Below, one piece after another: positions 4,501-28,042 of a stretch of DNA of 37,175 nucleotides (positions within the stretch are counted from its first letter, which is position 1; each line of letters starts with the position of its first letter). Location of the stretch: assembly GCA_003245695.1 (NCBI GenBank), contig QKCK01000063.1, positions 1-37,175 of the forward strand, written 5' to 3'. Below the pieces are notes generated by a model that was not told the DNA's origin, did no database searches, and saw nothing but the letters and a program-made list of their open reading frames with translations. Source of the stretch: Bacteroidota bacterium (GTDB lineage Bacteria > Bacteroidota > Bacteroidia > Bacteroidales > VadinHA17). The translations under genes were made by a program, and so were the position numbers.

Positions 4501-4845
4501 ATGATATCAACAGATTTGATTAAGGGGTCGCTTAAGACGATAGTCCTTAAAGTACTTGAAGAAAACGGACGCATGTATGGGTATGAGATAACGCGTAAGG
4601 TTGAGGAACTCACTGAAGGGAAGATCAAGCTTACCTACGGAGCTCTCTACCCTGTGTTGCATAAGCTTGAGAGTGACGGGGTTCTTGTAACAGAGTCGGA
4701 AAATTACAACAACCGTATTCGCATCTACTATTCTCTTACCGAGAAGGGGCATTCAGTGGTAGCAGAGAAGATAAGGGAGATGAAGGATTTTATTGAGTCT
4801 CTTCAGAGCATTGTTAACCCGCAGACTGGTATTAGTTATGCCTGA
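4501..4845 (+). CDS. PadR family transcriptional regulator
   Basis: KGSL..IVLKVL..MYGYEI..GALYPVLHKLE..R.YYSLTEKG winged-helix signature, 114 aa. Confidence 0.95.
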   Translation: MISTDLIKGSLKTIVLKVLEENGRMYGYEITRKVEELTEGKIKLTYGALYPVLHKLESDGVLVTESENYNNRIRIYYSLTEKGHSVVAEKIREMKDFIESLQSIVNPQTGISYA

Positions 4846-6283: not shown

Positions 6284-6287
6284 AGCC

Positions 6288-7223
6288 ATGAAAAAGAAGC
6301 TATATATTTTAGGTTTAGTAGATGTGGGTGTTATTGTTCTTGGTGCAATATTCAAGCTCAATCACCTTCCTGGTGCCGGCATTCTTCTTAGTGCAGGTAT
6401 TATCACTATGGTTTTTATCTTTCTCCCTCTGGCACTATGGAGTAATTTCCGTTACGAAGACGAGAAGCAGCCGGCTCTCCTTAACATTGTTACATGGATC
6501 ACCTGTTTTGTGATTTTTATCTCAATGCTGTTCAAGCTTATGCATTGGCCTGGTGCCGGTAAAATGCTTATGGTGGCACTTCCGTTCCCATTCCTGGTAT
6601 ACCTCCCTGTTTATCTTGTTGTTACATCCAGGATAAAGGGTTACAGTATTTATAAGACAGTGAATGTGTTGTTCCTTCTGGCCGCTGTAGCAGTTATTTC
6701 AGCCTTACTGGCTCTTAATGTCACAAAGGAGAGGATAAATGACAGTCTGGCATTGTCAGAAGACTATAATAAGGTAGAGGCGTTACTGGCTGATCTGCCG
6801 CATCAGGAGACAGACAAGGCTATGTATGATGGTATTGATAATGTTCTGGCTGTTGTTGATGATTATCAGAGAGAGATATTAATGGTCTACGGGCTGTCTG
6901 AAGAAGAATGGAACAAAAACCCTCAGGCCATAGTCGATTACGCAACAAGGAAAGTTGGTGCCGCCGGGCTCATAAGGGGTGACGGGCAGCATGCTGACAC
7001 CAGGCTTGAGGATGCACTTATCGCTCTGCTAAAGATATCTGATGAGGCAGGAGAGACAAAGGCATTAACCATGAGCATTGGAGACGTTGTTGGTTTACGT
7101 AAGCCTTTTCATGAGCACGGTCTGTGGAGCAATCTTTTATTCGGAAATGTGACGCTGTCGTGGGTTTTAGTGTACCTCGATGGTCTTGAGACAGATCTTA
7201 AGATTATCAGGTCAACGCTCTGA
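6288..7223 (+). CDS. Membrane protein: two GldL-like TM hairpins, one GldM-like TM helix and periplasmic domain
   Basis: GAIFKLNHLPGA and MLFKLMHWPGA at 60-aa spacing; ALLALNVTKE resembles the GldM/PorM motif A(M/L)LALNVS(K/A)E; C-terminus WSNLLFGNVTLSWVLVYLDGLETDLK. Confidence 0.75.
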   Translation: MKKKLYILGLVDVGVIVLGAIFKLNHLPGAGILLSAGIITMVFIFLPLALWSNFRYEDEKQPALLNIVTWITCFVIFISMLFKLMHWPGAGKMLMVALPFPFLVYLPVYLVVTSRIKGYSIYKTVNVLFLLAAVAVISALLALNVTKERINDSLALSEDYNKVEALLADLPHQETDKAMYDGIDNVLAVVDDYQREILMVYGLSEEEWNKNPQAIVDYATRKVGAAGLIRGDGQHADTRLEDALIALLKISDEAGETKALTMSIGDVVGLRKPFHEHGLWSNLLFGNVTLSWVLVYLDGLETDLKIIRSTL

Positions 7224-8541: not shown

Positions 8542-9288
8542 ATGAGATTCAAGGGGAAAGTTGTTATAATAACAGGATCTGGTCATGGTATAGGTGCCTC
8601 TATTGCCATGGCTTATGCCTCCGAAGGAGCGTCTGTTATTATTGCAGAGAAGGATCAGGAGCTAGGATCGGAGACGGAGAAGATCATAGTAACAGAGGGG
8701 TTCAAAGCAACACATATACTTACAGATGTAAGTAATCCGGATGACATTAAGGCTTTGGTAAGCAAGAGTGTATCTCTTTTTGGAAGGGTTGACATACTCG
8801 TAAACAATGCCGGCATTTCGCTCATGAAGTCACCCTATGAGCTCACTGTTGATGAGTGGGATACTGTTTTAAACACTAATCTCAGAGGCATGTTTTTATG
8901 TTCACGTGAGGTAGCAATGGTGATGAGAGATCACGGTGGAGGATCAATAGTCAACATTGCTTCAACGAGGGCATTCATGTCTGAGCCCGGGTCTGAAGCT
9001 TATGCAGCTTCAAAAGGGGGTGTCGTTGCTCTTACCCATGCTCTGGCAGCCTCACTTGCAGCAGATAACATAAGGGTGAACTGTATAAGTCCCGGATGGA
9101 TAGAGACAGGAGATTATGGCGTCTTAAGGGAGGCTGACCATAAGCAGCACTTCTCCGGGCGTGTAGGCAGACCCGGCGATATAGCACAGGCATGCCTTTT
9201 TCTTACATCTGAGGGTAATGAGTTTATCAATGGAGAGAATATAGTCATTGACGGAGGCATGACCCGTAAGATGATCTATGAGCCATAG
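8542..9288 (+). CDS. Classical short-chain dehydrogenase/reductase
   Basis: TGSGHGIG, NNAG, S..YAASK, NCISPG and IDGG motifs. Confidence 0.93.
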   Translation: MRFKGKVVIITGSGHGIGASIAMAYASEGASVIIAEKDQELGSETEKIIVTEGFKATHILTDVSNPDDIKALVSKSVSLFGRVDILVNNAGISLMKSPYELTVDEWDTVLNTNLRGMFLCSREVAMVMRDHGGGSIVNIASTRAFMSEPGSEAYAASKGGVVALTHALAASLAADNIRVNCISPGWIETGDYGVLREADHKQHFSGRVGRPGDIAQACLFLTSEGNEFINGENIVIDGGMTRKMIYEP

Positions 9289-9396: not shown

Positions 9397-10662
9397 ATGA
9401 AAGAGCTCCGTCATTACCCCCCGTATCGTTTTATTGTGCTTGCAGTCTTCATGCTTATAACAATTGCCATTGAGATACAGTGGCTGTCGCATGCTGCTGT
9501 TGCCAGGCCGGCGGAGGTCTTTTATGCAGGTCAGTTCAACCCTGCCTCTTTCCTGAATATTGATTTCATGGCAATGGTTTATATGCTGGCTTTCCTTGTG
9601 ATGAGTTTCCCGGCCTCATATGTGATTGACACCTATGGCATAAGACAGGGACTGGGTATAGGTGCTGCACTGCTTGGTGTCTTCAGTATCATCAAGATGC
9701 TCTATGCCTCAAGTTTTACAGGGGTCATCATAGCTCAGACAGGGTTGGCAATTGCGCAGCCTTTTATCTTAAATGCTGTTACAGCTCTTACTGTTAGATG
9801 GTTTCCTCTTAATGAAAGAGCTATGGCAGCCGGTCTGTCTGCCCTGGCACAGTATGTAGGCATTGTAATAGCCATGCTTGTAACACCTCTGCTGGTTGGC
9901 TCTGACCCCTCCTCACCTGATTATGGCTCCGGCTTTGAACACATGCTGCTTATCTATTCCATATTAAGTGTCGGGAGTGTTTTGCTGTTTTTCATTTTTA
10001 TGCGTGAGACACCTAAAGGAGTCCCCTTTGATGTGAGCGCGAGAACACCTTTCATGAAAGGGATGAGACTGATACTCTCTCATCGTGATATGAAGATAAC
10101 TATATTCCTTTTTCTCATAGGACTGGGTATCTTTAATGCTGTAAGCTCAATGACAGACTCAATAGCAGAGCGCCTTGGGGTGAGGGACTCCGACGGACTT
10201 ATCGGTGGTCTGATGCTTATCGGTGGTATAGCAGGAGCTATAATAATACCTCTCTTATCTGACTATTACCAAAAACGCAGGCTATTTCTTATTATATGCC
10301 TTGCCGGCATGGTACCAGGTGTTGCGGGGCTTACCTTTGCGCCTGTGATGGCACATCAGCCTGAGACAGTATATACTGTTGCCCTTGTGTCCTCTTTTAT
10401 ACTCGGTTTCTTTGTTATGAGTGCCGGGCCGATAGGGTTTCAGTATGCTGCTGAAGTCAGTTACCCTGCTCCCGAGTCAGCTTCGCAGGGGATATTGTTA
10501 TGGATAGGCCAGCTGACAGGGATGGTTTTTGTTGCAGGTATGAGTATAGATAACAATCATTACCTGGGGAAGATTATGATACTCTTTTCAGTGCTAAGTA
10601 TTGTTTCATTAATTGCAGTCTTTTCACTGCGTGAGAGTCCGCTTATGAAGACAAAGGGATAG
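9397..10662 (+). CDS. MFS transporter, FLVCR/SLC49-like
   Basis: About 12 TM segments; AQPFILN..RWFP.NER and GFQYAAEVSYP..ES.SQG segments resemble FLVCR-family sequences. Confidence 0.85.
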   Translation: MKELRHYPPYRFIVLAVFMLITIAIEIQWLSHAAVARPAEVFYAGQFNPASFLNIDFMAMVYMLAFLVMSFPASYVIDTYGIRQGLGIGAALLGVFSIIKMLYASSFTGVIIAQTGLAIAQPFILNAVTALTVRWFPLNERAMAAGLSALAQYVGIVIAMLVTPLLVGSDPSSPDYGSGFEHMLLIYSILSVGSVLLFFIFMRETPKGVPFDVSARTPFMKGMRLILSHRDMKITIFLFLIGLGIFNAVSSMTDSIAERLGVRDSDGLIGGLMLIGGIAGAIIIPLLSDYYQKRRLFLIICLAGMVPGVAGLTFAPVMAHQPETVYTVALVSSFILGFFVMSAGPIGFQYAAEVSYPAPESASQGILLWIGQLTGMVFVAGMSIDNNHYLGKIMILFSVLSIVSLIAVFSLRESPLMKTKG

Positions 10663-10679: not shown

Positions 10680-12050
10680 TCAGAAGGTATAGCCAAAACC
10701 GACATAGAGAGCATTATTACCTGCTCCGGCATTAATGGAGTGTGCCCAGTCAAGTCCTATTACAGTGTTTTCATTCATAACCAGTTTGCCTCCCAGACCA
10801 TATGATGAGTACCATTTACTGTCTGTATTGCTGAAGTATTTCTGTTGTTCAACAGGTGTTAATGAAGAGAGGTCCATTTCTATCGGCTTGATGAGGTAAC
10901 CGGTATGAAAAAGAGGGACAGCTCCAAGATACCAGTTCTGTTTTATGAATCTGAATCTGACGAGTTTTGCTCTCAGCTCGAAATTGGCCATTACGAATTG
11001 TCGGGCCATAATACGGTTCTGATGTATCCCCCACAATGTACCTGTACCACCAAAGCCCTCAGTGCCGTCAGCCAGTACCTGCCTGGTATAGAAAGGCAAT
11101 GACCCGAAGCAGGCATCATAACGCAACCGATATGCAAATGAGAGCTTTTCAGATACCAGGGTGATATAATGCCGGTGAGTGATGGCTATCTGCAGGGCAT
11201 TGTCATTGTTACCAAGAAAAGAAGGGGTATAACGTAAGGTGAAGTCTGTCCATATACCCTTCATCGGGTTTGTGAGACGATCACGTGTGTCATATACCAA
11301 TGCTCCTCTTAGGGCATTAGCCCACCCACCATCTTTTTCATTACTGCCAATGATGCCCCATGCGATATACTGATCATATAATGTTGGCACATCAGGTGCT
11401 ATATCGGTATCATCAACACCCTTGTTCAGTTTTTCAAAGTCGACCCTTGATGTATTGTAATGTGCTATATCAGCCCCTGCCTGCCAGTTGATAAAGGTAC
11501 CGGGGATAGTGTCCTGGATGAAAACAGCAATACGTGCCACCCTCTGCTCATAGTTGTAGAATGGTGCTGTGATATAGCTTGCAGAGCTGCTCTCATGGTA
11601 ATCTGAGTCGTATATGGTCTGATAACCATTGTAGCCGTAGAAGGGATAGAGAGTTGATCTGGTATATGATACTTTTGCCGATAGCAGAAACCTGCCATAA
11701 TCGAGATACTCAAGGCCGAAGTTTGTCTTGCCCTTTGTCCCATGCGCCGCAGCTATGGTAAGCGAACGGTAGAAATTTGGATAGAGTCTGCCGTCGCCAT
11801 AATCAAAGATTGTTGAATAGATCCCCAGGTACAGACCTATGAACGGATCTATCTGGAACTCAGGCAGAGGGGCCAGGTTATACCCTGTCTTGGCTATATA
11901 TTTGTCAGACATGAAGAGTGAGGTGTCGGAAGCTTCCCTGCCTGCCCTGAGAGTGTCAGTCTGCCCTGCAACAGTGGCTGTCAGCATCAGCATCATAAGA
12001 GAGAGTATTGTTGTAATCTTCTCTTTTTGACGGCGGATTTCTATATGCAT
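10680..12050 (-). CDS. Omp85/BamA-TamA-like outer-membrane beta-barrel without POTRA domains
   Basis: Signal peptide, YDTRD..NP.KG, ANFELR and C-terminal beta-signal LYVGFGYTF; 456 aa leaves no room for POTRA domains. Confidence 0.8.
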   Translation of the reverse strand: MHIEIRRQKEKITTILSLMMLMLTATVAGQTDTLRAGREASDTSLFMSDKYIAKTGYNLAPLPEFQIDPFIGLYLGIYSTIFDYGDGRLYPNFYRSLTIAAAHGTKGKTNFGLEYLDYGRFLLSAKVSYTRSTLYPFYGYNGYQTIYDSDYHESSSASYITAPFYNYEQRVARIAVFIQDTIPGTFINWQAGADIAHYNTSRVDFEKLNKGVDDTDIAPDVPTLYDQYIAWGIIGSNEKDGGWANALRGALVYDTRDRLTNPMKGIWTDFTLRYTPSFLGNNDNALQIAITHRHYITLVSEKLSFAYRLRYDACFGSLPFYTRQVLADGTEGFGGTGTLWGIHQNRIMARQFVMANFELRAKLVRFRFIKQNWYLGAVPLFHTGYLIKPIEMDLSSLTPVEQQKYFSNTDSKWYSSYGLGGKLVMNENTVIGLDWAHSINAGAGNNALYVGFGYTF

Positions 12051-12060
12051 AGTACATGTA

Positions 12061-12726
12061 TTAGTGTCTGTTCGATTTATCCCGGGCTGAATATTTTTTC
12101 AGATATACCTGATGCATCAGGTAAGCTTCAACGCCGTTGATGTTTTTAGCGCCACCAAGAAACTCTGCCTCAATGAAAGCTTTACAGGCTTTCTCGAGTA
12201 CCTGGGCAACGACAAACGCCTCTTCCATATCGCGGCCGATGCATACTGCACCATGATTAGCCATCAGTGCAGCCATCCTTCCCTTGAGAGCCTTCAGGGT
12301 CCCTTTTACTATCTTCCCTGTCGAAGGCAGGGCGTAAGGTGCAACACGTACAGAAGGCCCTATGATCTGAGCCATATCATCGAGGACAGGAGGCACCTCC
12401 CTTCTTGCTGCCGCACATGTTGAGGCATTCATCTGATGCGTGTGTATGACAGCATTTATCTCCCTGCGCGTTCGATATATCTCTGAATGAAGCCTGTGTT
12501 CAGATGAAGGTTTTATCTCTCCTGTATATTCAGAACTGTTTATATCAACCAGTACTATGTCCTCAGGAGACAAGCCATCATATTTTCTGCCACTGGGTGT
12601 TATCAGCATATGATCTTCATCTGCCCTTATACTTACATTACCCCATGTGCGAGCCACAAGACCTTCGTTAAGCAGCATGAGGCCTGCTTCAATAACCTGT
12701 TTTCTCTTTTCATCAAGTGATTCCAT
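12061..12726 (-). CDS. Class II aldolase/adducin family protein (fuculose-1-phosphate aldolase-like)
   Basis: WGNVS, ITPSG, KPSSE..H, IHTH and NHG Zn-binding motifs. Confidence 0.92.
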   Translation of the reverse strand: MESLDEKRKQVIEAGLMLLNEGLVARTWGNVSIRADEDHMLITPSGRKYDGLSPEDIVLVDINSSEYTGEIKPSSEHRLHSEIYRTRREINAVIHTHQMNASTCAAARREVPPVLDDMAQIIGPSVRVAPYALPSTGKIVKGTLKALKGRMAALMANHGAVCIGRDMEEAFVVAQVLEKACKAFIEAEFLGGAKNINGVEAYLMHQVYLKKYSARDKSNRH

Positions 12727-12727
12727 A

Positions 12728-14260
12728 TTACGAGCTGAACCGTTTTGTATTAATATTCTTATATGTCTGTCGGAGGTTTACATACAGCTCTTTGTATGTT
12801 TTGTAGAGTGAACTGAATATCTCCTGCTTGTCGGCTTGTGGTTCAAACACCTTCCTGATATGTATCATTTTGTTTACCTCTGAGAAGCTGCTGAAGGTAC
12901 CGTTGCCAACGAAGGCGCAGACGGAGGCTCCTATTGCTCCGGCCATTGTCGGCTCTGTGATGGTCTCAATACGTTTGCCTGTGATATTGGCAATGCCCTG
13001 CATCCATTTTTCATTGACAGAGCCGCCACCGATGGCACGCAGGGTGTCAACAGTGAATCCGAAGTCTCTTTCGTAGTTCTCAAGTATCCAATGCAGGTTA
13101 TATCCTATACCTTCAAGCATGGCTTTGATCATGTGACCGCGTTTATGCTCCAGGCTGAGATTGAAGAGTGTACCGCGCGTTGTGGTGGTGCTTACCGGAC
13201 ATCGCTCTCCCAGAAGCCATGGTGTAAAGATCAGATGGTCAGAGCCATCAGGTATGCCTTCTGTCTCTGAGTCAATGAAGTTGTAGATGTTTTCAATCTT
13301 TGGATCTTCTTTCTCAAGCTTATAAAAGTTATCAATCATCCAGTCGAAGTTTGAGCCGGCTGACTCTGTTATTCCTACGAGGAGGTTTAGATCAGGGTCG
13401 GCACTCTGAAGGAAGAAAGCACCGTTTTTATGTTTCAGTATCTTTTGTGTTGCCAGTCCGGCCCAGGCTGATGTGCCAAGATAGATGTGTGCCCTTCCGT
13501 CGCTGTTGGCTCCTGAGCCCATGGCTGCACTCTGTGTGTCATCACAGCCGCCGAAAACGGGTATCTGCCCCGGCAGATTCATCGCAGCAGCGGCCTCAGA
13601 GGTAAGGGTGCCGATGACATCTGTTGAACGTACCAGTGGAGGCAGCTTACGCATATCTATACCTGCTGCCTTGAAGACAGTGCGTTCCCAGTCTTTTCGC
13701 TTAAGGTTAAAGCCATAGGAGCAGGCACCTGTCCATTCAAACACCTTTTTGCCTGTAGCCCTGAACTTAAGATATCCGTTGACATCAAGGAGAGTGTCGG
13801 TATTATTATATACTTCAGGACAGTGTTGTTTCAGCCAGCTTAATTTTGGTATTACATCCTTACCTGTTATCTCAACCCCTATCAGACTCCTGAACACCTT
13901 TTTCCCTCCAAGCATTCTCATCAGTCTCTGGGCTTGTTCTTCTGCTCTGCCATCAACCCAGGTGATATTTGGATAGAGGATATTACCACCGGCATCAAGA
14001 GGGATAATGCCCATTGACTGTGTAGAGAAGACAATGCCTGTGATGTGGGCAGTGTATCTGATATCCGTGGCAATGATCTGTCGTGTGTTTTCAATCACGC
14101 TGTTCCAGTAGTCTTCGGGGTTCTGTTCAACCCATCCGGGCTTGGGATACCTGAAAGGGTATGAGGTGGTATGGCTGGCCACCACTACACCACGGTCACT
14201 TACCAGGGCGCTCTTGACGGAGCTGGTGCCTACATCATGTGCCAGAACGTATCTATCCAT
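12728..14260 (-). CDS. FGGY-family carbohydrate kinase (xylulokinase-like)
   Basis: HDVGTSSVK, WVEQNP, W.DGRA, YLGTS, PWLLGERCP, LEG and GGGS motifs. Confidence 0.92.
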   Translation of the reverse strand: MDRYVLAHDVGTSSVKSALVSDRGVVVASHTTSYPFRYPKPGWVEQNPEDYWNSVIENTRQIIATDIRYTAHITGIVFSTQSMGIIPLDAGGNILYPNITWVDGRAEEQAQRLMRMLGGKKVFRSLIGVEITGKDVIPKLSWLKQHCPEVYNNTDTLLDVNGYLKFRATGKKVFEWTGACSYGFNLKRKDWERTVFKAAGIDMRKLPPLVRSTDVIGTLTSEAAAAMNLPGQIPVFGGCDDTQSAAMGSGANSDGRAHIYLGTSAWAGLATQKILKHKNGAFFLQSADPDLNLLVGITESAGSNFDWMIDNFYKLEKEDPKIENIYNFIDSETEGIPDGSDHLIFTPWLLGERCPVSTTTTRGTLFNLSLEHKRGHMIKAMLEGIGYNLHWILENYERDFGFTVDTLRAIGGGSVNEKWMQGIANITGKRIETITEPTMAGAIGASVCAFVGNGTFSSFSEVNKMIHIRKVFEPQADKQEIFSSLYKTYKELYVNLRQTYKNINTKRFSS

Positions 14261-14266
14261 GGGTAG

Positions 14267-15736
14267 TCAGTTTACTCCTTCGATATTCTGAAAGACTCTT
14301 TCAAAACGTGCCAGTGCATCATCAATGACTTCGTCAGTGTCAGCGGCGCTTGTATACATACGGCTTCCTGCCAGGGTGACAATTCCTTCGGCCATGTATG
14401 CTGCCCCCATCTCTTCCATCATATGTTTTCTGACCTTGACCTCTTTCAGGGCGTGGGGCAGTGTCCAGGGACGTCTCATGTTTATCCTGACAAACATGGT
14501 GGCTGATGTCTCCAGGTGGCATATAGACCCCTGGTTGTATGCCACGAAGGGAAGGTTGTATTTAATGATCAGTTCCTGTAATCCTTTTGTTAGTCTGTCG
14601 CCGGCACGGCCTGCCCTGGCACAGGCATCACTCTTCTCAATCTCAAGCAGGGTATGAAAGCCTGCTGCAGAGCTCAGGGGGTTGGCTGACATGGTCCCCC
14701 CGACCATGGCACGTTTGCTGGCCCCCTGTAGCCCTGCTGCCAGGCATGACATATACTCTTTTTTACCTCCCAGGCCTCCTGCTGCCGGATAGCCTCCTGC
14801 CACTACCTTACCGAAGATTGTCAGGTCAGGCATGACATTGTAATATCCCTGTGCACCTGAAAGCCCTATCCTGAAAGCAGTGACCACCTCATCGAAGATA
14901 AGCAGCGCCCCGTAACGTGTGCATAACTCACGTACCCTGGCGTTGTAGTCAAAGTCAACAGGACGCGTACCACTCTCAGGCCCTACTGGCTCCAGAATCA
15001 CTGCCGCGGTGCCGCCCAGCAGCCTGTTACGCCTCAGCCTCCTCTCCAGCGCCTTTATGTCATTGGGATAGACCTCCTGCGTGTGTCTTGTGCATCCACG
15101 CGGTATGCCATGTGCATCAAACCTGCCAGTGCCCGGAACACGCATACCATAAACCATCTGGTCACTCCAGCCATGGTATGCTCCCCCGACCTTGATAATC
15201 TTCTTCCTGCCGGTGACGAGCCTGGCAACCCTGATAGATGCCATAACTGCTTCAGTGCCACTGCCCAGCATGCGAAATAACTCAACCGAAGGGATATGAT
15301 TACAGATGAACTCTGCTATCTTATACTCATACTCATGAAAGAGGCCTGTGGAAGGACCACATTCATTGATGACCTCTATGGCCTTCTCCCTTACAACCTG
15401 ATGATTACTGCCGAGGACCGTGGGACCACCAGCCTGAATGAAGTCAATATACCTGTTGCCATCAAGGTCATAAAGATATGCCCCCTCAGCTTTGGTAAAT
15501 ACAAGAGGGAAGGGGTAATTGAAAGCAAGGTTGTGCTGTACTCCTCCCGGAATAAAATTCATGGCTGTGGATATCATCTCTTTTGACTTTGTACACCTGC
15601 TCTCAAAATATTCAAGGTAATGCTTCATCTTCTCACTGGTGACAGGACGGACAGGCATTCCGACGAGACTGTCAAGCCTTTGGTATATTTCGTCAACATT
15701 GTGATACTCAGAGATGGAAAAACCGGTTTTAGTCAT
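14267..15736 (-). CDS. Class III PLP-dependent aminotransferase, HemL/GSA-aminomutase-like but divergent
   Basis: DLDGNRYID, SGTEA, YHG, ILEPV, LIFDEVVTAFR and DLTIFGK (PLP lysine); HemL PGGVNSPVR is replaced by PGGVQHNLA. Confidence 0.9.
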   Translation of the reverse strand: MTKTGFSISEYHNVDEIYQRLDSLVGMPVRPVTSEKMKHYLEYFESRCTKSKEMISTAMNFIPGGVQHNLAFNYPFPLVFTKAEGAYLYDLDGNRYIDFIQAGGPTVLGSNHQVVREKAIEVINECGPSTGLFHEYEYKIAEFICNHIPSVELFRMLGSGTEAVMASIRVARLVTGRKKIIKVGGAYHGWSDQMVYGMRVPGTGRFDAHGIPRGCTRHTQEVYPNDIKALERRLRRNRLLGGTAAVILEPVGPESGTRPVDFDYNARVRELCTRYGALLIFDEVVTAFRIGLSGAQGYYNVMPDLTIFGKVVAGGYPAAGGLGGKKEYMSCLAAGLQGASKRAMVGGTMSANPLSSAAGFHTLLEIEKSDACARAGRAGDRLTKGLQELIIKYNLPFVAYNQGSICHLETSATMFVRINMRRPWTLPHALKEVKVRKHMMEEMGAAYMAEGIVTLAGSRMYTSAADTDEVIDDALARFERVFQNIEGVN

Positions 15737-15746
15737 AAAGCTTGTA

Positions 15747-17129
15747 TTATATGTTTCTGTTCAGTAAGCGTTTAAAAAGTCTTAGTGTCTTATATTGCCC
15801 TTTATATGGCGGATACCTGAAGGGGAGGTCAGGGTTGAGCTTATAGTGAACACCCTTAAGGTTACTGAAGGTATTGAACGAAGCCTCCCCGTGATATTTA
15901 CCCATACCACTGTTACCGACACCGCCAAAGGGCAGGTTCTTGTTTACATAATTGAGCATAGAGTCATTGATGCAAACGTTGCCTGATGATGTGTGTCTTA
16001 TGTATTGCTCCTGTTCTTTGCGTACGGAGGAAAAAATATATACCACCAGGGGCTTCTCACGTGAGTTGATAAATGAGATGACATCCTCACTATTCTTATA
16101 GGTTATAACAGGTAAAACAGGGCCGAAGATCTCATCCTGCATAACAGGCAACTCTGTGTTGTGAGGCACTATCAGCGTTGGCGATAACTGCAGGTTATCA
16201 GCCGAGTAGTCTCCACCATAGATGATATCCCCCTGTTTGAGATAGTCAATAAGTCTGGTGAAGTGATTCCTGTTTATTATCCTGGTGTAATCAAACCTGC
16301 TGTTACTTATGAACTGTTCAGTATGTGACTTAAAAGCATCGCAGAATGCCTTGAAGTCATTGTCATGGACCATGACATAGTCAGGGGCCACGCACGACTG
16401 TCCCGCATTGAAGAACTTGCCCCAGGCGATGCTCTTTGCGGCCTTTTCTATATTGTAGTTTTCTGTAATGATTACAGGACATTTACCTCCCAGTTCAAGC
16501 GTCACCGGTGTAAGGTTGGCAGCAGCCATCTTCATCACCTCCCTGCCTACCGAAACACTGCCTGTGAAAAAGATATAGTCAAAGCGCAACTGTAACAACT
16601 CCCTGGCTGTCTCAACGCCGCCCTCACAGACACATACATATTCATCATAAAAGACCTCGCCAAGAAGATCCCTGATAAGAGCCGAAGTGTGAGGAGTGAA
16701 TTCTGATGGTTTCAGCATAACTGTATTGCCAGCAGCGATGGCACCTATCAGAGGAGACATACAAAGATCAATGGGATAATTCCAGGGCGCAATAATCAGC
16801 ACCTGCCCATAAGGCTCAGGGACAACAGATGCCTTCGAAGGGAAAATCATCAGTGGCGACCTCACACGCCTCTTTCTGTTCCATTGCTTTACATTAGCAA
16901 TAGCAGTATCCAGCTCATGAAGCATACCCATGTATTCTCCCAGAAATGATTCCTGTACAGGTTTACTCAGATCTCTTCTTAGTGCTTTGTATATGCTTAT
17001 CTCATTCTCGTGAAGCACTCTTTTCAAATCCTTTAGTGCCTTTAGCCTGAAATCAATGTCAAGCGTCCGGCCTGTTCTAAAGAACTTTTTTTGTTGTGCG
17101 TGTATTTCGTTTAACTGAATCATGATCAT
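15747..17129 (-). CDS. NAD(P)-dependent aldehyde dehydrogenase, ALDH3/fatty-aldehyde dehydrogenase type
   Basis: EPYG.VLII.PWNYP, AGN..LKPSE, FFTGS, LELGGK, GKF.NAGQSCVAPDY, EIFGP and PFGGVG.SG.G.YHG; start moved to ATG 17129 because the longer ORF overlaps tetR. Confidence 0.93.
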   Translation of the reverse strand: MIMIQLNEIHAQQKKFFRTGRTLDIDFRLKALKDLKRVLHENEISIYKALRRDLSKPVQESFLGEYMGMLHELDTAIANVKQWNRKRRVRSPLMIFPSKASVVPEPYGQVLIIAPWNYPIDLCMSPLIGAIAAGNTVMLKPSEFTPHTSALIRDLLGEVFYDEYVCVCEGGVETARELLQLRFDYIFFTGSVSVGREVMKMAAANLTPVTLELGGKCPVIITENYNIEKAAKSIAWGKFFNAGQSCVAPDYVMVHDNDFKAFCDAFKSHTEQFISNSRFDYTRIINRNHFTRLIDYLKQGDIIYGGDYSADNLQLSPTLIVPHNTELPVMQDEIFGPVLPVITYKNSEDVISFINSREKPLVVYIFSSVRKEQEQYIRHTSSGNVCINDSMLNYVNKNLPFGGVGNSGMGKYHGEASFNTFSNLKGVHYKLNPDLPFRYPPYKGQYKTLRLFKRLLNRNI

Positions 17130-17141
17130 TTTTGATAAAAT

Positions 17142-17172
17142 CAAATGTAGTAATATATGTAAATAAAACAAA
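17142..17172 (-). promoter_or_regulatory. Promoter of the ALDH-aminotransferase operon
   Basis: Minus-strand TTTG (17169-17172), 19-nt spacer, TACATTTG (17142-17149). Confidence 0.65.
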
Positions 17173-17186
17173 TAACCGATATTAAA

Positions 17187-17207
17187 AAAATGACCAATAG
17201 TCAGTTT
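17187..17207. promoter_or_regulatory. Putative TetR operator
   Basis: AAAaTGAC-caata-GTCAgTTT inverted repeat between the divergent promoters. Confidence 0.5.
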
Positions 17208-17227
17208 AATTATATGGGTTAAATTAT

Positions 17228-17235
17228 TACATTTG
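17228..17235 (+). promoter_or_regulatory. -7 box (TACATTTG) of tetR
   Basis: Matches TAnnTTTG 16 nt upstream of ATG 17252. Confidence 0.55.
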
Positions 17236-17251
17236 TAACTGACAAGTACAA

Positions 17252-17881
17252 ATGGGAATAGCAGAACGAAAGGAGAGAGAGAAGCAGAGGCGCAGGGAGG
17301 AGATCCTTGATGCAGCTGAAGAGATATTCTTTGACGCCAACGGAGAGAAAGGGACAATGGATGATGTGGCTGAGAGGGTTGAGCTCAGTAAGGGGACACT
17401 TTATCTTTATTACCGTAACAAGAATGATTTATTATATGCTATAGCTGAGAAGGGTGTAGGGTTATTACTTGAATATTTTGCAGGGGTTATCAGGGAGGGG
17501 CTTTCAGGCCGTAATCAGTTATCTGATATAGGTGATGAGTTTGTAAGGTTTGTGGAGGATTATCCGAAGCATTTTGAGCTGATTCTTCGTTTTGAGCTTG
17601 CTGGTTATCAGTCGCCTGATGGAGGTGACAGGTTGTTGATGGAGCCTGCTTTAGCATTTCTGCGTGAGGTGCTTGTTCGCGGGCAGAAGGATGGCTCTAT
17701 CAGGGATGATATTACAGAGGATGAGATTGTGATTATTTTATGGTCTCAGATGATAGGGCTGATGCAGAGTATTCTGCGTAAGGAGCGATATATAGATTTT
17801 TACGGTGTGGAGCTGAAGAGGGTAATAAAGGGGCACTATCGCATCATAATGAAGGGCATTGAGCCTAAGTCAACGGAATAG
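17252..17881 (+). CDS. TetR/AcrR family transcriptional regulator
   Basis: RREEILDAA..F..TMDDVA..ELSKGTLYLYY..K.DL helix-turn-helix. Confidence 0.95.
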   Translation: MGIAERKEREKQRRREEILDAAEEIFFDANGEKGTMDDVAERVELSKGTLYLYYRNKNDLLYAIAEKGVGLLLEYFAGVIREGLSGRNQLSDIGDEFVRFVEDYPKHFELILRFELAGYQSPDGGDRLLMEPALAFLREVLVRGQKDGSIRDDITEDEIVIILWSQMIGLMQSILRKERYIDFYGVELKRVIKGHYRIIMKGIEPKSTE

Positions 17882-17921: not shown

Positions 17922-18719
17922 CTATGCATAGCTTTCAGGGTTCCTGATAGCATTTTTGATGTATTTAAACAGTCGTGCTCCGTGAGATGCATCCGCCAGG
18001 CGATGATCGATGGCAATAGTAAGTGACATCATTCTGCGGATGGTTATTTCATTATTTACTACAACAGGTTTCTTCTGTATACCCCCCATTACAAAGACGA
18101 ATGAGAAATTGGCAGTAGGCAGCAGTGCCGGAAACCCGAAGTCAAGTCCCAGACTACCGATATTTGTCAGCAGGAAAGAGCCGTTGGTATTGGGTGTAAG
18201 ACCCAGTCCTGGTATTGAGAGTCCCCAGTCAAGTGTCAGCAGTTTGAATAATCTGAAGAGCCAGTTACGGAAGGGCCAGGGGAGGCGTGCCAACACATTT
18301 TTGCTTTTGGTGAAGTCATTCTCACGTCCACCACGTGACTTGTTTATTGCACTGTTCATATAACCCTGAAGGGTCTCATAGGTAAGAGTGTCGGCTTCAG
18401 GGACGATGACTGAGCTCATGTCACCGGTGGCCTGCAGGACGCTTACACCCACATCCACCGACGGACGGGGCAGTATCTTACCCCTGCGCGGGTAGGTATT
18501 GAACTCGGGGATATCATTTTTTACAGCCCTGGCAAGTACCAAAACGAAGAAATGTGTTAGCGTAATCTTCTGTCCCTCTTTTCTCTTCTGTGCAATATAG
18601 TCTTCGAGATCGGTGACGTCTATCTCAACACCACCGAATATCTTTGAGTCAACAGGTTTCTTATAGATTGTAGTGGCTACCTTACGCCATGTAGAGTTAA
18701 ACTGCTCGTGTGAATCCAT
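17922..18719 (-). CDS. Stand-alone 2-oxoacid dehydrogenase E2-type acyltransferase catalytic domain
   Basis: PEFN, GSFLLTNIGS, KPVV..I..R.MMSLT.AIDHRLADA; no lipoyl or E3-binding domain in 265 aa. Confidence 0.85.
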   Translation of the reverse strand: MDSHEQFNSTWRKVATTIYKKPVDSKIFGGVEIDVTDLEDYIAQKRKEGQKITLTHFFVLVLARAVKNDIPEFNTYPRRGKILPRPSVDVGVSVLQATGDMSSVIVPEADTLTYETLQGYMNSAINKSRGGRENDFTKSKNVLARLPWPFRNWLFRLFKLLTLDWGLSIPGLGLTPNTNGSFLLTNIGSLGLDFGFPALLPTANFSFVFVMGGIQKKPVVVNNEITIRRMMSLTIAIDHRLADASHGARLFKYIKNAIRNPESYA

Positions 18720-19561: not shown

Positions 19562-20719
19562 ATGAAAGGTATTATAGTAACATTAGCATTTCTCTCTCTC
19601 GCAGCCGCTTTGTCAGCGCAGGGAGATCCTCCTTTCAGTGTTAACGATCTCTTTGATCACAGTGAGCCTGAGACATTAGGGTTATGCATGATTCCGGGTG
19701 CTGAGACCATAACAGTGTTCTCTCCGGGCAGTGCTGATAACAAGTATAATCACGGGGTGGTTCTGTTCCCTTTTAAGGGGATGCTTTATGCGCAGTGGCA
19801 GAGTTCTGCTGTTGATGAAGACAGTCCTGATACGAAGGTGTTTTACAGCAGGAGCAGTGATGGGAAGTGTTGGAGTGCCCCCCTGTTACTGGCTGATACA
19901 TATGATGGCATTCTGACCACCGGCGGAGGGTGGTGGAGTGATGGTGATACTCTGGTTGCATATCTCTGCCGATGGAGGAACGGGGATAGTGCTATACGTG
20001 AGGGATACACAGTATATTTCACTTCTGTTGACGGTGAGGAGTGGAGTGATGCCAGGCCAGTGACAGACTTTCAGGGAGACACTCTTAAAGGTATTATAGA
20101 ACAGGATGTTCATTCTCTTTCTGACGGGAGGATAATAACAGCCTTTCATCTGCAGCCGGGGCTGCAGGTTACCCCCTTTTTCACAGATGATCGTATGGGT
20201 GTCAGTGGCTGGAGGGCAGGGGTGATGGAGCATCTTCTGTCAGATGATAGATACATTACCAGGGAGCTTGAACCATCATGGTTTTACAGGAGTGATGGTG
20301 CTGTGGTGATGATCTTTCGTGATCAGACCGGGTCATTCAGGAGTCTGGCCTCAGTGAGTTATGACAGAGGTGTTACCTGGAGCACCCCTGTGGTAACAGA
20401 CATTCGTGACTCCAGGGCGAAGCAGAGTGCCGGTAACCTGCCGGATGGGACTGCCTTTATAGTTAATAATCCTTCAGGTACCAGGAACAGGTTTCCATTG
20501 GTTCTGACAGTGAGCAGCGACGGTTTTGTTTTTGACAGGGCCTATCTGCTGCGCAGCGGTGGCGATGATATGCAGTCTATGCGATACCAGGGTCGCTATA
20601 AGCGTCCGGGTTTCAGTTATCCAAAGAGCGTGGTATGGGGCAGTCATCTCTTTGTTGGTTATGCCACCAACAAGGAGGATGTGGAGATAACACGTATACC
20701 CATAGATTGTCTTCGTTAA
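19562..20719 (+). CDS. Secreted BNR/Asp-box beta-propeller protein (sialidase-like fold, no RIP motif)
   Basis: Signal peptide; SSDGKCW, SVDGEEW, SYDRGVTW and SSDGFVF Asp boxes; C-terminal FSYPK; TAATTTTG -7 box at 19478-19485. Confidence 0.75.
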   Translation: MKGIIVTLAFLSLAAALSAQGDPPFSVNDLFDHSEPETLGLCMIPGAETITVFSPGSADNKYNHGVVLFPFKGMLYAQWQSSAVDEDSPDTKVFYSRSSDGKCWSAPLLLADTYDGILTTGGGWWSDGDTLVAYLCRWRNGDSAIREGYTVYFTSVDGEEWSDARPVTDFQGDTLKGIIEQDVHSLSDGRIITAFHLQPGLQVTPFFTDDRMGVSGWRAGVMEHLLSDDRYITRELEPSWFYRSDGAVVMIFRDQTGSFRSLASVSYDRGVTWSTPVVTDIRDSRAKQSAGNLPDGTAFIVNNPSGTRNRFPLVLTVSSDGFVFDRAYLLRSGGDDMQSMRYQGRYKRPGFSYPKSVVWGSHLFVGYATNKEDVEITRIPIDCLR

Positions 20720-20772
20720 GATTGATCACACGCTGACTGTGGCTCACTAAGTGTCTTTCGGTTCGAAAGAAA

Positions 20773-22026
20773 TCAGTCGTCAGTCTTGTTTGCTACAGCA
20801 GGTCTCAGTGTCATAAGCTGCAGTATTACAGCTATTGCAACAGGTATGGCAAGCATGGCCATATCTTTACCAAGATGTCCTGAGTCGGTTGACTTGCCTA
20901 GCATGTTTGTGATAAATGCACCTGCAAACACACCTGTCATATTCATCAGACCGTATCCGGCAGCACGATGTCGTGAGGAGACGAACTGGCACAGTATGGG
21001 CATATTGTTTGCATCAAACATACCAAATCCGATGCCGAAGAGTACTCCGCCGCCAACTATAAGCAATGGAGCTGTCCCAAACCCAAGGAGACCCAGTGCC
21101 GGAATAAGGAGTGAGAGGCCTATTGCTCCCGTAAAGATCCTTCCTCTCAGGTTTGTCTGTATCCATCTGTCAGCAAGCAGTCCTCCAACGATAACACCTA
21201 TGAATGATGATGAGGCTATGGTTATTGTTGACAATGGTCCGGCTACTGTCATATCGAGACCCATACTTTCTGAGAAGAGGGTAGGCAGCCAGTTTTTTGT
21301 TGCCCAGCCCGGGAAGCTGGGTACGGCAAAGTAGAAGAGGATAACCCAGAAGCTTATTGTTCCCAGTAGTGCTCCCATACTCTGATATATTGATTTTATT
21401 CCAAAGCCATGTTTTATTGCAGGAGTGGTTGAGGTGCTCTCCTCTCTGACAGGGTCTTTCAGGAAGAGTATAAGTATCAGGCTGTATACCACCCCAATCA
21501 GGCCAAAAGAGTGAAACGCTGTCTGCCATGAGAAGGAATGGGCCAGGGTAGCTCCAAAACCGCCTATTGCCTGACCCAGGTAGAGGCCTGTCATATGAAT
21601 TCCTATTGCCAGTGAGCGTGTGGTCTCTTTATGATATTCAACTATCAGGGCCAGGCCTGCCGGTATATACAGTGCCTCGCTCAGACCCATAATTGCTCTG
21701 AGGGCATAAAGGACGTTAAAATCATGTGCATAACCCATCAGCAGGGTGACACTTGACCAGACACCCAGGCTGCCAACGATAAGCCATTTCTTGCTGAGCC
21801 TGTCAGCAACAAAGCCTGCCATGGGACTGACAAAACCATAGACCCACAGGAAGACGGCCATAAGATATCCGAAGTTCTCAGCGCTCTCAAGCTCTTTGAT
21901 GTCAGCCATCATTGATATTCTCATGGTTGACAGCATCTGCCTGTCCATATAATTCAGTAATGCTACAAACCATAAAAGTCCTACCACAACCCATGGATAG
22001 AAAGATTTGTTATTTCTTTGTTTCAT
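20773..22026 (-). CDS. nanT: MFS transporter, Bacteroides NanT-like sialic acid permease
   Basis: LNYMDRQ, ADRLS, RAIMG.SEA.Y.PA and GMFD.NNMPILCQ; last gene of the nan PUL. Confidence 0.75.
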   Translation of the reverse strand: MKQRNNKSFYPWVVVGLLWFVALLNYMDRQMLSTMRISMMADIKELESAENFGYLMAVFLWVYGFVSPMAGFVADRLSKKWLIVGSLGVWSSVTLLMGYAHDFNVLYALRAIMGLSEALYIPAGLALIVEYHKETTRSLAIGIHMTGLYLGQAIGGFGATLAHSFSWQTAFHSFGLIGVVYSLILILFLKDPVREESTSTTPAIKHGFGIKSIYQSMGALLGTISFWVILFYFAVPSFPGWATKNWLPTLFSESMGLDMTVAGPLSTITIASSSFIGVIVGGLLADRWIQTNLRGRIFTGAIGLSLLIPALGLLGFGTAPLLIVGGGVLFGIGFGMFDANNMPILCQFVSSRHRAAGYGLMNMTGVFAGAFITNMLGKSTDSGHLGKDMAMLAIPVAIAVILQLMTLRPAVANKTDD

Positions 22027-22123
22027 CTTCTTTGTCTTCCTTGTTATTTAAAAGTCAGCACAGGATACTCACTTCTGCTTTTCTCAGGCATTAAATCAAA
22101 CGGTATAATGGCTGGTGCCTGAT

Positions 22124-23758
22124 TTACTTATTTATAATATCTGACAATGGTATTTTCTCAAATACAAGATCAGCCTGGCTACTTTCATATAAAACGGCTA
22201 TTTCGTTTTCATTTACAGAGGTAATGCATGAATATCCCCTTGACTTCATCTCATCTAATAGTATCCAGTATTTCTCCGGCCATGTCATGCCATCATCGAA
22301 GCTTACTTTGAGAGTCATATTCTCTCTTTTCGTTTTTGAGTTGGGATTAGAAAACAGAAGCATCTCTTTCTGAACCCCATTGACCGTATAGTAATGTTTA
22401 TGTATTGAGGCCATGCATACAGGTTCCGGGAGACCTCCTCTTGATGTGGGATGCTCGGTCCATGATTCACCCAGGTCTTTTGTCACAGCAACAGCTCTGC
22501 CGTTGTTGTCGGAGAGGTTGTTTCTGTTGCTATTAAGCCTCATGTTCAGCATTATTGATCCGTTAGAAAGCTCTACTGCCATGTTTTCTGTTGTGTTGTG
22601 GTATGCAGGTTTGCCGGTATGCCATGTCACACCGTTGTCGCGGCTCCATATTATAGTTGAAAAAGGGCTTCCCTTTTCATCGCGGCCCTGTGAAGGCAAT
22701 ACTATTGTTCCATCGCGGAGGGTTATGCCATGGCCTGGTGTTGGGGCAATCAGCCACCACTCTCTTTTTTTCACCATTGTGGTTATTACAGCCGGGTCGC
22801 TCCATGTTACTCCGTCGTCACTGCTGTGAGAGATCACAAACTGTGTTGTCTCTTTCACCCCAAAACCTGGTTGTGATCCTTTGTTTTTCCACTGGTGGTT
22901 CCATACCTCAGAGCTGTCTGTCAGTCCTTCTATCCACTTGCCATTTTCATCTAATACGCCATGCATCCACAGGCCTGTGATAAACAGGTAATTATCATCA
23001 TCGGCCACTACTCCGGGATCGCTTACGCCATTGAACTTCTCGGGCAGGCCTCCCCATTTGCCCATGTCAAGTACTATCTTCATGGGCTCCCATGTTTTAC
23101 CTCCGTCACAGCTCCTGCTCATCCCTACATCTATGTCGCCCTGCAGATCGCGGCTGCTTCTCCTGCGGGCATCATACACTGCTATCAGCGTCCCTTGTTT
23201 TGTTGTGGTGATGCCCGGTATACGGTAGGTATCAACATCATCGTCCATATGTTTTCTGAGAGCGTATCCTATCCGCAGCTCACGCTTGTCACCCTCCTCC
23301 CGGGGAATGGCACGGCCTTCACTGCTTTTAACTGAGACACACGATATGCTGATCTTATGTAATAACTCCGCCTCACTGTTCAACTCTAAAGAGACCCACA
23401 GGTTGCAGCTGTCTTTAAACCTGACCTCATCACTGAACTTTATCTTCATTGATGGTTTTTGGTCTTTACCATATTGGTTTGCAGTAATGAACTCAGACTG
23501 TGTTGCTGAGTAGAACAGCCTGACAGCACTGAGATCATTAAGATCGGTTGTCCCTTCAAGGCTTATGGAGACTTCTGATACAGAGATACTGTCATGGGTG
23601 TCAGCCCTTAACAGTATTTTCAGAACGGGGTTGTCAGTTTTGTTAGTCAAAACAGGAACCTGGTACAGTGTTGTTTTAACTGTTATCTTTTCAGACATAC
23701 ATCCTGCAGTTAATGCAAGAAAAGCAAGGCTGGTTATCAGGATCTCTTTAAAGTGCAT
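22124..23758 (-). CDS. nanH: GH33 exo-alpha-sialidase, NanH-like lipoprotein with N-terminal domain
   Basis: YRIP, DARR..DLQ, five Asp boxes (SCDGGKTW, SSDDGVTW, SRDNGVTW, TKDLGESW, SFDDGMTW), TTE, NMR and GYS. Confidence 0.9.
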   Translation of the reverse strand: MHFKEILITSLAFLALTAGCMSEKITVKTTLYQVPVLTNKTDNPVLKILLRADTHDSISVSEVSISLEGTTDLNDLSAVRLFYSATQSEFITANQYGKDQKPSMKIKFSDEVRFKDSCNLWVSLELNSEAELLHKISISCVSVKSSEGRAIPREEGDKRELRIGYALRKHMDDDVDTYRIPGITTTKQGTLIAVYDARRRSSRDLQGDIDVGMSRSCDGGKTWEPMKIVLDMGKWGGLPEKFNGVSDPGVVADDDNYLFITGLWMHGVLDENGKWIEGLTDSSEVWNHQWKNKGSQPGFGVKETTQFVISHSSDDGVTWSDPAVITTMVKKREWWLIAPTPGHGITLRDGTIVLPSQGRDEKGSPFSTIIWSRDNGVTWHTGKPAYHNTTENMAVELSNGSIMLNMRLNSNRNNLSDNNGRAVAVTKDLGESWTEHPTSRGGLPEPVCMASIHKHYYTVNGVQKEMLLFSNPNSKTKRENMTLKVSFDDGMTWPEKYWILLDEMKSRGYSCITSVNENEIAVLYESSQADLVFEKIPLSDIINK

Positions 23759-23775
23759 ATAGTAAGTTATTGATT

Positions 23776-23817
23776 CAAAAATAAATAGTTACAGGGAGCA
23801 TTCTATCTCCCTGTAAC
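23776..23817 (-). terminator. Intra-operon stem-loop or weak terminator
   Basis: 11-bp stem GTTACAGGGAG/CTCCCTGTAAC followed on the minus strand by TATTTATTTTT. Confidence 0.65.
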
Positions 23818-23830
23818 ATGATTAACATAA

Positions 23831-25348: not shown

Positions 25349-25387
25349 TGATTGATATATTTATCTCAGATGAAAAAGCATCTGAGA

Positions 25388-26569: not shown

Positions 26570-26588
26570 TTCTTTATTATTAATTGAA

Positions 26589-28019: not shown

Positions 28020-28042
28020 GCTATTATCTGTTTATATCGATT

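Follow-up and report, generated by a model that had tools for sequence, protein, structure and literature searches.

Bacterial L-fucose and L-rhamnose catabolism employs an aldose-ketose isomerase, a kinase of the FGGY family and a class II aldolase of the FucA family, and 5-deoxyribose salvage also includes such an isomerase. Sphingoid bases are degraded in eukaryotes by a route of sphingosine kinase, sphingosine-1-phosphate (S1P) lyase and the aldehyde dehydrogenase ALDH3A2/Hfd1. Few lipids are as common in plants, fungi, animals and Bacteroidota as sphingolipids; to our knowledge, S1P lyase is the only established exit from the sphingoid-base pool, and we know of no description of a bacterial long-chain-base kinase. 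Here, we analyzed a five-gene operon on contig QKCK01000063.1 of a Bacteroidota bacterium (assembly GCA_003245695.1), the whole 37,175 nucleotides of which we call the window. We tentatively read it as a catabolic operon under TetR repression whose substrate is an amino alcohol with a 2-amino-1,3,4-triol head, most likely a 4-hydroxy sphingoid base of the phytosphingosine type.

Like the fucose and rhamnose systems, this operon encodes an FGGY kinase beside a FucA-family aldolase with its metal-binding and acid/base residues, plus an aldehyde dehydrogenase (ALDH), and the expected products would be dihydroxyacetone phosphate (DHAP) and an aldehyde. It differs from them in having a class III aminotransferase (AT) in the place of the isomerase, in a kinase and an aldolase that score below the cut-offs of the named models, in an ALDH of the ALDH3 class rather than the AldA type, and in its TetR control and FLVCR-like transporter. 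With the eukaryotic sphingoid-base route it would share the substrate class and an ALDH3-type last step, and S1P-lyase homologs occur in two related operons (L039 and L043, see below). In contrast to that route, no S1P lyase was found in the window or its genome (search described below), the kinase is FGGY-type and not diacylglycerol-kinase-like, the amino group would be kept by transamination, and the proposed aldolase cut between C3 and C4 would release DHAP, not phosphoethanolamine. The aldolase is nearest to DrdA of 5-deoxyribose salvage (the DHAP shunt of DrdK, DrdI and DrdA; PMC6079011), and the proposed intermediate would carry the same 3R,4R diol; however, the operon lacks an MtnK-type kinase and an MtnA-type isomerase, its kinase is of the FGGY family, and its ketone would arise from an amine.

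The contig that forms the window belongs to a Bacteroidota metagenome-assembled genome (G000; 3.59 Mb in 363 contigs, 94.4% complete). Its five minus-strand open reading frames (ORFs) run in one direction with spacings of 10, 6, 1 and 10 nt, in the transcription order ALDH, AT, kinase, aldolase and Omp85-family protein, and tetR diverges from them on the plus strand (Table 1). A first-pass annotation of the sequence had proposed this layout, these gaps and these gene families, and the ORF list together with Pfam and NCBIfam confirmed them, apart from one start: the ALDH ORF, taken there from a TTG (15747..17357, 536 aa), overlaps tetR, and its true start is likely the ATG at 17129, which would leave a 122-nt divergent intergenic region. 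The annotation had also held that a sugar isomerase is missing, and no sugar isomerase family was indeed found among the 29 window ORFs scanned with Pfam and NCBIfam, nor were MtnK-like kinase or MtnA-like isomerase families found among the window ORFs scanned.

A protein search returned thousands of AT relatives, with 71-100% identity among the best 120 listed, and a scan of one genome per species gave 584 relatives, and we analyzed the 80 best of these loci. AT is 64-82% identical across these 80 loci, which are spread over Bacteroidota, Chloroflexota, Planctomycetota, Bacillota, Verrucomicrobiota, Thorarchaeota and Promethearchaeota, as well as Hydrogenedentota, Nitrospirales, Marinimicrobia, spirochaetes, an actinomycete and a deltaproteobacterium. 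Maribellus sediminis, Ornatilinea apprima, Chengkuizengella marina and Wukongibacter baidiensis are among the carriers available in culture. Neighbors within 8 kb of AT were counted by tblastn with several queries per family; 47 of the 80 loci have at least 4 kb on both flanks, and the counts among these 47 are given in brackets. An aldolase lies near AT at 63 loci (42), an FGGY kinase at 54 (37), and both together at 50 (34). Because the three genes occur together at 34 of the 47 well-flanked loci, the arrangement is not due to chance, and the synteny survey that the first-pass annotation had suggested thus yielded a unit of AT, kinase and aldolase conserved across phyla. Only L007 and L034 among the 47 carry neither kinase nor aldolase. 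Less frequent neighbors were TetR regulators at 28 loci (20), transporters of the major facilitator superfamily (MFS) at 24 (21), Crp-type regulators at 11 (6), ALDH3 at 5 (2), S1P-lyase-like proteins at 3 (2) and a RuBisCO-like protein (RLP) at 3 (3).

The kinase and the aldolase come in two divergent types, whose identity to the proteins of the window is about 53-79% for one and about 30-37% for the other (for the kinase alone, about 53-74% and about 30%), while AT stays at or above 64%. The module is also rare and patchy: of 401 Bacteroidota genomes sampled, four carried it, with three of the four belonging to a single family, and among 301 Planctomycetota genomes it was found once. Such an occurrence, combined with high identity across phyla, suggests lateral spread.

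Two genes that the first-pass annotation had counted as parts of the operon proved to lie outside the conserved unit. ALDH relatives stand beside AT only in L004 (64% identity), L006 (41%), L039 and L043 (45%) and L058 (31%), that is, at 6 of 81 places with the window included, and the Omp85 gene was found in the window only: none of the 80 loci has a relative, and the closest locus, L004, has no ORF at that place. The Omp85 protein is the operon's sole product above a curated NCBIfam cut-off (Omp85_fam NF047779, 254 bits against 200), and a 34% identical paralog lies on contig C284 of the same genome. In L068, a 438-aa POTRA/BamA-like outer-membrane protein (L068:15096-16412, with fragments in L062) is encoded within a polysaccharide utilization locus (PUL) beside a glycoside hydrolase of family GH30; we considered it as an Omp85 counterpart and rejected it, as it has no pairwise similarity to the window protein.

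Conversely, an MFS gene convergent on the operon, overlooked in the first-pass annotation, belongs to the unit. Its relatives beside AT are 63-71% identical in Bacteroidota and 32-43% in Chloroflexota, Bacillota and others. The best PDB matches of the window protein were FLVCR1 (6.6e-30) and FLVCR2, the human carriers of ethanolamine and choline. Four of five ligand-site residues of FLVCR1 (W125, Q214, F348 and Q471) are identical in the alignment, and Y349 is replaced by Asn247; W, Q, F, N and Q occupy these five columns in all 24 of the 24 cluster-linked MFS proteins. According to PMC11168923, W125 and Y349 make cation-pi contacts to the amine of the ligand and Q214 and Q471 contact its hydroxyl. 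By these sequence matches, the MFS substrate probably has an ethanolamine-like head, a feature of sphingoid bases and also of small amino alcohols.

AT matched Aminotran_3 (PF00202) with 172.6 bits against a gathering threshold of 30.5. HemL is its nearest sequence family, and AT retains the motif FGKVVAGG with Lys310, presumably the lysine motif that binds pyridoxal phosphate (PLP). However, AT scored below the curated cut-offs of all NCBIfam hemL models (TIGR00713, 277.9 bits against 527.3; PRK00062, 306.5 against 398), and the model match ranges gave it an N-terminal extension of about 48 residues relative to HemL. Its nearest solved relatives in a PDB search were glutamate-1-semialdehyde (GSA) aminomutases (2.8e-69) and D-phenylglycine aminotransferase. 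The first-pass annotation had foreseen the automated label hemL, and some sources, such as JGI, do name AT relatives "glutamate-1-semialdehyde 2,1-aminomutase". It had also proposed looking for a separate hemL: among three class III hits in the 94.4%-complete genome, none passed the hemL cut-off. Nor did any protein of the genome pass the hemA cut-off (best match 20.9 bits against 209.55), and hemB/ALAD (PF00490) had no match in it. The partners of the C5 pathway are thus probably absent from this genome at its level of completeness. Because AT falls below the hemL cut-offs and the genome shows neither a hemA above cut-off nor a hemB, a role in tetrapyrrole synthesis is very unlikely, even allowing for the missing 5.6% of the genome.

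The first-pass annotation had drawn a parallel to FumI, the aminotransferase of aminopentol (hydrolyzed fumonisin). The parallel stands insofar as FumI belongs to class III and removes the amino group at C2 of a sphingoid-like amino-polyol. However, the relationship of AT to FumI is distant (6hbs, E 2.6e-21, as compared with 2.8e-69 for the GSA aminomutases), and the FumI substrate lacks the C1 hydroxyl, so that no kinase or aldolase step follows.

The kinase scored below cut-off for every named model: XylB, 304.8 bits against 380.25; GntK, 242.4 against 648.55; FucK, 152.8 against 470.9; and RhaB, 67.2 against 527.95. The same held for the aldolase with the FucA models (TIGR01086, 101.4 against 400.25; PRK06833, 143.8 against 264) and with the ribulose-1-phosphate aldolase model (122.5 against 300), and its OtnC score was 87.3 bits. 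Glu76, His95, His97 and His158 are present in the window aldolase and in 57 of 70 aligned aldolase-family sequences from the clusters; we take them to be equivalent to FucA E73, H92, H94 and H155, the metal ligands and catalytic Glu. The best PDB match of the aldolase was 6btd (1.2e-31). PMC6079011 identifies 6btd as DrdA, the 5-deoxyribulose-1-phosphate aldolase of B. thuringiensis, and names Glu76 of that enzyme. By its closest solved relatives, the window ALDH is an ALDH3-class enzyme: 6k0z (3.4e-118), rat ALDH3 1ad3 (4.3e-106), 3sza (1.3e-104) and human fatty aldehyde dehydrogenase 4qgk (2.4e-104). With the MdlD model, it reached 399.5 bits against a cut-off of 550.

A second aldolase-family paralog of about 200 aa directly follows the true aldolase in several Chitinophagales (L021:12034-12636, L025:12036-12638, L110-L112 and others). 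About 12-13 of the 70 aligned aldolase-family sequences lack the Glu and His residues, and the short paralog may be a non-catalytic subunit.

From the observed gene families, the conservation of the unit and its context, we infer all substrates and reactions as follows. The FLVCR-like MFS protein would import the base, the FGGY kinase would phosphorylate its C1 hydroxyl, and AT would convert the C2 amine to a ketone, giving a (3R,4R)-3,4-dihydroxy-2-oxoalkyl 1-phosphate, the long-chain homolog of 5-deoxy-D-ribulose 1-phosphate. The FucA/DrdA-type aldolase would cut this compound between C3 and C4 into DHAP and a fatty aldehyde (pentadecanal from a C18 base), and the ALDH3-class enzyme, where present, would oxidize the aldehyde to the acid. 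Transamination would here substitute for the aldose-ketose isomerase of the fucose, rhamnose and 5-deoxyribose pathways. We judge it fairly probable that the module converts a 2-amino-1,3,4-triol into DHAP and an aldehyde; that its natural substrate is a phytosphingosine-type base is possible, falling somewhat short of probable. More doubtful is the full picture, in which 4-hydroxy sphingoid bases would be degraded without S1P lyase by an FGGY long-chain-base kinase, a GSA-aminomutase-like transaminase and a DrdA-like aldolase to DHAP and an odd-chain fatty aldehyde, and in which gene transfer would have carried the module into ten or more phyla, Asgard archaea included, where it would have been plugged into glycosphingolipid PULs of Bacteroidota and an S1P-lyase operon of Planctomycetota.

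Apart from the uptake, these were also the steps of the first-pass annotation, which placed AT before the kinase. We consider the reverse order at least as likely, because the single kinase of the S1P-lyase operons would need to feed the lyase a base 1-phosphate. Deoxynojirimycin biosynthesis offers an example of a class III enzyme that works on C2 of a phosphorylated ketose. Sphinganine and sphingosine have no 4-hydroxyl and so would not be cleaved by the aldolase, which would explain why S1P lyase was added in some lineages.

The stereochemistry of phytosphingosine would suit the proposed aldolase. When the C2 amine of the (2S,3S,4R) base becomes a ketone, the priority order at C3 should flip and C4 stay unchanged, so that the 2-oxo 1-phosphate would be (3R,4R). 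PMC6079011 gives this configuration for what FucA forms and cleaves, and infers it for DrdA. Three Dehalococcoidia loci (L054, L059 and L064; for example L059:7067-11440) carry, in this order, the FGGY kinase, an MtnW-like RLP and AT, and no aldolase; the RLP scored 386.2 bits against the cut-off of 409 of the 2,3-diketo-5-methylthiopentyl-1-phosphate (DK-MTP-1-P) enolase (MtnW) model. FucA/DrdA aldolases and MtnW-type RLPs both act on 1-phospho-2-keto-3,4-diols with a hydrophobic tail, and the exchange of one for the other fits the predicted intermediate.

Genomic context lent the sphingoid-base idea of the first-pass annotation independent support, from an S1P lyase in the operon, an endoglycoceramidase-like glycoside hydrolase, the ALDH3 class and the FLVCR-like transporter; a ceramidase was not found beside the cluster (scope below). 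Two Planctomycetota loci, L039 (a Phycisphaerales chromosome) and L043 (a Pirellulales contig), carry FGGY kinase, S1P lyase, ALDH3, AT and aldolase in this order. Their in-operon lyase matched the solved S1P lyase 3mad with E 1.4e-188 and human SGPL1 with 3.3e-133, and the one AT-bearing genome among the 301 Planctomycetota is the carrier of the S1P-lyase operon. In the Bacteroidota loci L036, L033, L062 and L068, the trio of AT, kinase and aldolase is part of a SusC/SusD/PKD locus that also holds a GH5 enzyme, whose best PDB match was Rhodococcus endoglycoceramidase II (3.2e-43); a sterylglucosidase also matched. GH30 is present in L068, L006 and L062, and GH1, GH29 and GH92 also accompany these PULs. 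We considered bacteriohopane aminotriol as a further substrate and rejected it by reasoning, as its terminal amine would give an aldose, for which an isomerase would still be required.

Several proteins recur in these neighborhoods. A secreted 122-126-aa protein of unassigned family is encoded directly upstream of AT (L036:9485-9865, L068:9500-9868, L062:1015-1392, L006:1673-2041 and others), with relatives in 4 to 8 Bacteroidota loci per query for four queries. In Chitinophagales, a protein of 476-480 aa encoded near AT (L021:6827-8269, L027, L030, L045 and L110:52-1482) weakly matches peptidase M19 (amidohydrolase-type) in its C-terminal part and is a candidate amide hydrolase. A family of 785-791 aa (L068:16422-18797, L006:6134-8491) has no Pfam or NCBIfam match and is widespread in Bacteroidota, including Pedobacter and Flavobacterium; its 791-aa member is conserved in two PULs.

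A number of observations weigh against phytosphingosine-type bases as the substrate. The S1P-lyase link comes from two related genomes only, and in L043, the lyase gene contains one internal TAA and the kinase is split over two ORFs, which reflects either decay or an assembly error. An apparent third lyase, in L025, was rejected: it is 40% identical, MfnA-like and next to an amino-acid permease, and a better lyase lies elsewhere in that genome. The only NCBIfam row for the GH5 protein, endoglycoceramidase I, fell far short of its cut-off of 700 bits with a score of 138.7, and the GH5/GH30 context is no more than suggestive of glycosphingolipids, as GH5, GH30 and GH1 enzymes also act on ordinary glucans. 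The window's own genome showed no S1P lyase (L039 lyase query, tblastn, E 1e-10), no endoglycoceramidase-like GH5 and no GH30. A Pfam search of ten unassigned neighbors (E≤1), together with NCBIfam, Atlas and PDB sequence searches, revealed no ceramidase beside the cluster, and without a deacylase, ceramide cannot feed AT. The 791-aa PUL protein, which by size was the best ceramidase candidate, was rejected, as its AlphaFold model (pLDDT 71.6) matched GH101, GH129, GH36 and GH31 glycosidases; its family may be an undescribed one of glycoside hydrolases. ALDH is missing from most loci, FLVCR1 and FLVCR2 carry small solutes and would equally fit a short water-soluble amino-polyol, and we know of no FGGY kinase or FucA-type aldolase that acts on a C18 lipid.

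A serious rival, unlikely as we consider it, is that the same chemistry serves a 2-amino-polyol that is short and water-soluble and bears a D-erythro 3,4-diol, such as a 2-amino-2-deoxy-tetritol or -pentitol, occurring as a natural product yet to be described or as a glycoside aglycone. FGGY kinases and FucA/DrdA aldolases act on soluble sugars, the MFS protein is nearest to small-solute carriers, the Bacteroidota trio sits in glycan-type PULs without a ceramidase, and most loci do without ALDH3. However, we know of no abundant natural 2-amino-alditol of D-erythro configuration, and TetR control, the ALDH3 class, the in-operon S1P lyase and the endoglycoceramidase-like GH5 point to lipids. The common hexosaminitols that the first-pass annotation had offered as an alternative, glucosaminitol and galactosaminitol, fare worse, as by stereochemical reasoning they would give D-threo and L-erythro ketoses, a misfit with a (3R,4R) aldolase of the FucA/DrdA type; such ketoses belong to other aldolase families. 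The S1P lyase of the L039 and L043 operons, the RLP of three loci and the carrier-site residues kept in a transporter that resembles ethanolamine/choline carriers would also agree with salvage of ethanolamine or phosphoethanolamine, the other S1P-lyase product. In such a scheme, AT would form glycolaldehyde or its phosphate, the aldolase would add DHAP to give a pentulose phosphate, and the kinase or the RLP would act next; the 122.5 bits of the aldolase for the ribulose-1-phosphate aldolase model, below the cut-off of 300, could be cited in its favor. We hold it improbable: at least 77 of the 80 loci have the trio without S1P lyase, the RLP stands in for the aldolase instead of acting after it and is MtnW-like, not of the carboxylase type, ALDH3 and the endoglycoceramidase-type PULs would be left without a role, and we know of no precedent.

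AT and ALDH could instead form the classic pair that turns a terminal amine into an aldehyde and then an acid, the kinase and the aldolase-family enzyme handling the resulting sugar acid or an unrelated sugar. Pairs of class III aminotransferase and ALDH are common, relatives of the GSA-like clade among the PDB matches act on terminal or beta amines, gluconokinase is the second-best model of the kinase, and the aldolase family includes decarboxylases such as OtnC. Nevertheless, ALDH accompanies AT at 5 of 80 loci and the aldolase and kinase at 63 and 54; therefore, the conserved partners of AT are the kinase and the aldolase, not ALDH, and this pairing is a distinctly improbable account of the unit. 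Read in the biosynthetic direction, the aldolase would join DHAP to an aldehyde, AT would turn the resulting ketose phosphate into an amino-triol phosphate by amination, and the product would leave the cell through the MFS protein. A class III aminotransferase aminates a ketose phosphate at C2 in deoxynojirimycin biosynthesis, and TetR with an MFS protein is a common export pair. Class II aldolases are also reversible, as noted in PMC6079011. Yet synthesis would have no use for a kinase that spends ATP or an ALDH3 that consumes the aldehyde, and the trio is embedded in SusCD/GH loci with no other biosynthetic genes present, which leaves biosynthesis very improbable. Finally, the best NCBIfam rows (GSA aminomutase, XylB and FucA/AraD) and the JGI name for AT relatives would make this a hemL for heme next to ordinary xylulose and fuculose genes. 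We find this scarcely credible, given that all of these scores lie below curated cut-offs, that the window ORFs scanned include no isomerase, that the 94.4%-complete genome has no hemA above cut-off and no hemB, and that AT travels with kinase and aldolase across phyla.

In a literature search covering titles and abstract openings, we found no paper that describes such a pathway. The module, a transaminase in place of an isomerase, is a conserved multi-phylum pathway without a description in the literature searched, even if its substrate is another amino-polyol. If degradation of phytosphingosine-type bases is its function, it would open a second way out of the sphingoid-base pool, ending in DHAP and an odd-chain fatty acid, and would alter how sphingolipid turnover in sediments, soils and guts is read. 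It would also assign an activity to widespread genes now labeled hemL, xylB and fucA, widen the substrate range of FGGY kinases and class II aldolases to include lipids, and provide enzymes to make or cleave long-chain amino-triols.

The divergent regulator matched TetR_N with 43.2 bits against a gathering threshold of 24, and its relatives beside AT are 67% (L004), 52% (L033) and 44% (L005) identical. TetR regulators accompany AT in several phyla, and a Crp-type regulator takes their place in one Bacteroidota family. When the intergenic regions of the window and L004 were aligned, the conserved block was a palindrome, perfect in L004 (10+1+10, AAAATGACTG-C-CAGTCATTTT) and matched at 8 of 10 arm positions in the window. 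Across 1.25 Mb of loci, we counted only 10 occurrences of the core TGAC-N5-GTCA, three of which lie within 250 nt of an orthologous tetR (L004, L005 and L033). The palindrome, conserved beside tetR in four of four orthologous Bacteroidota loci, is a candidate TetR operator. At the place aligned to TACATTTG of the window, L004 carries TATATTTG; we take TAnnTTTG to be the Bacteroidota -7 promoter consensus, and this word precedes the ALDH start in both. For this phylum, a sigma-70 promoter and terminator scan gave no useful information.

Table 1. Features of the operon and its immediate surroundings in the window.
Feature	Position	Strand	Details
TetR-family regulator	17252..17881	+	209 aa; PF00440 3.4e-11, TetR_C_33 3.2e-4
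Candidate TetR operator, imperfect palindrome AAAnTGAC-N5-GTCAnTTT	17187..17207		In the 122-nt intergenic region
Putative promoter element TACATTTG, fitting the Bacteroidota -7 element TAnnTTTG	17142..17149	-	About 13 nt upstream of the ALDH ATG; read from sequence
ALDH3-class aldehyde dehydrogenase	15747..17129	-	460 aa from the ATG at 17129; Aldedh 4.4e-83
Class III (GSA-aminomutase-like) PLP aminotransferase (AT)	14267..15736	-	489 aa; Aminotran_3 1.4e-50; conserved core gene
FGGY-family kinase	12728..14260	-	510 aa; FGGY_N 5.3e-54, FGGY_C 1.6e-24
Class II (FucA/DrdA-type) aldolase	12061..12726	-	221 aa; Aldolase_II 2.3e-50
Omp85-family outer-membrane protein, final gene of the operon	10680..12050	-	Omp85 1.8e-09; NF047779 254 bits; local addition
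FLVCR-like MFS transporter, convergent on the operon	9397..10662	+	421 aa; conserved near AT elsewhere
Short-chain dehydrogenase/reductase (SDR) oxidoreductase	8542..9288	+	adh_short_C2 3.3e-62; 108 nt before the MFS gene, same direction

It is doubtful that the SDR gene is part of the system; elsewhere, the 80 loci gave one 29% SDR match near AT. Convergent on tetR, positions 17922-18719 encode a 265-aa protein that consists of the E2 catalytic (acyltransferase) domain of 2-oxoacid dehydrogenases alone and is not conserved near AT elsewhere. SusC/SusD and GldL-like genes also occur on the contig, as does a sialic-acid locus. The latter, a sialic-acid utilization locus at 19562-34497, comprises three BNR sialidase-like genes, an MFS gene, SusC/SusD, a PKD/laminin-G protein, a NanA-like lyase of the dihydrodipicolinate synthase (DHDPS) family, a NanM-like epimerase and a GntR regulator; adjacency is its sole evident tie to the operon. 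At 4793-7223, a tandem gene pair (496 and 311 aa) encodes repeated GldL N-terminal domains, an unusual duplication of a motor component of gliding and the type IX secretion system (T9SS).

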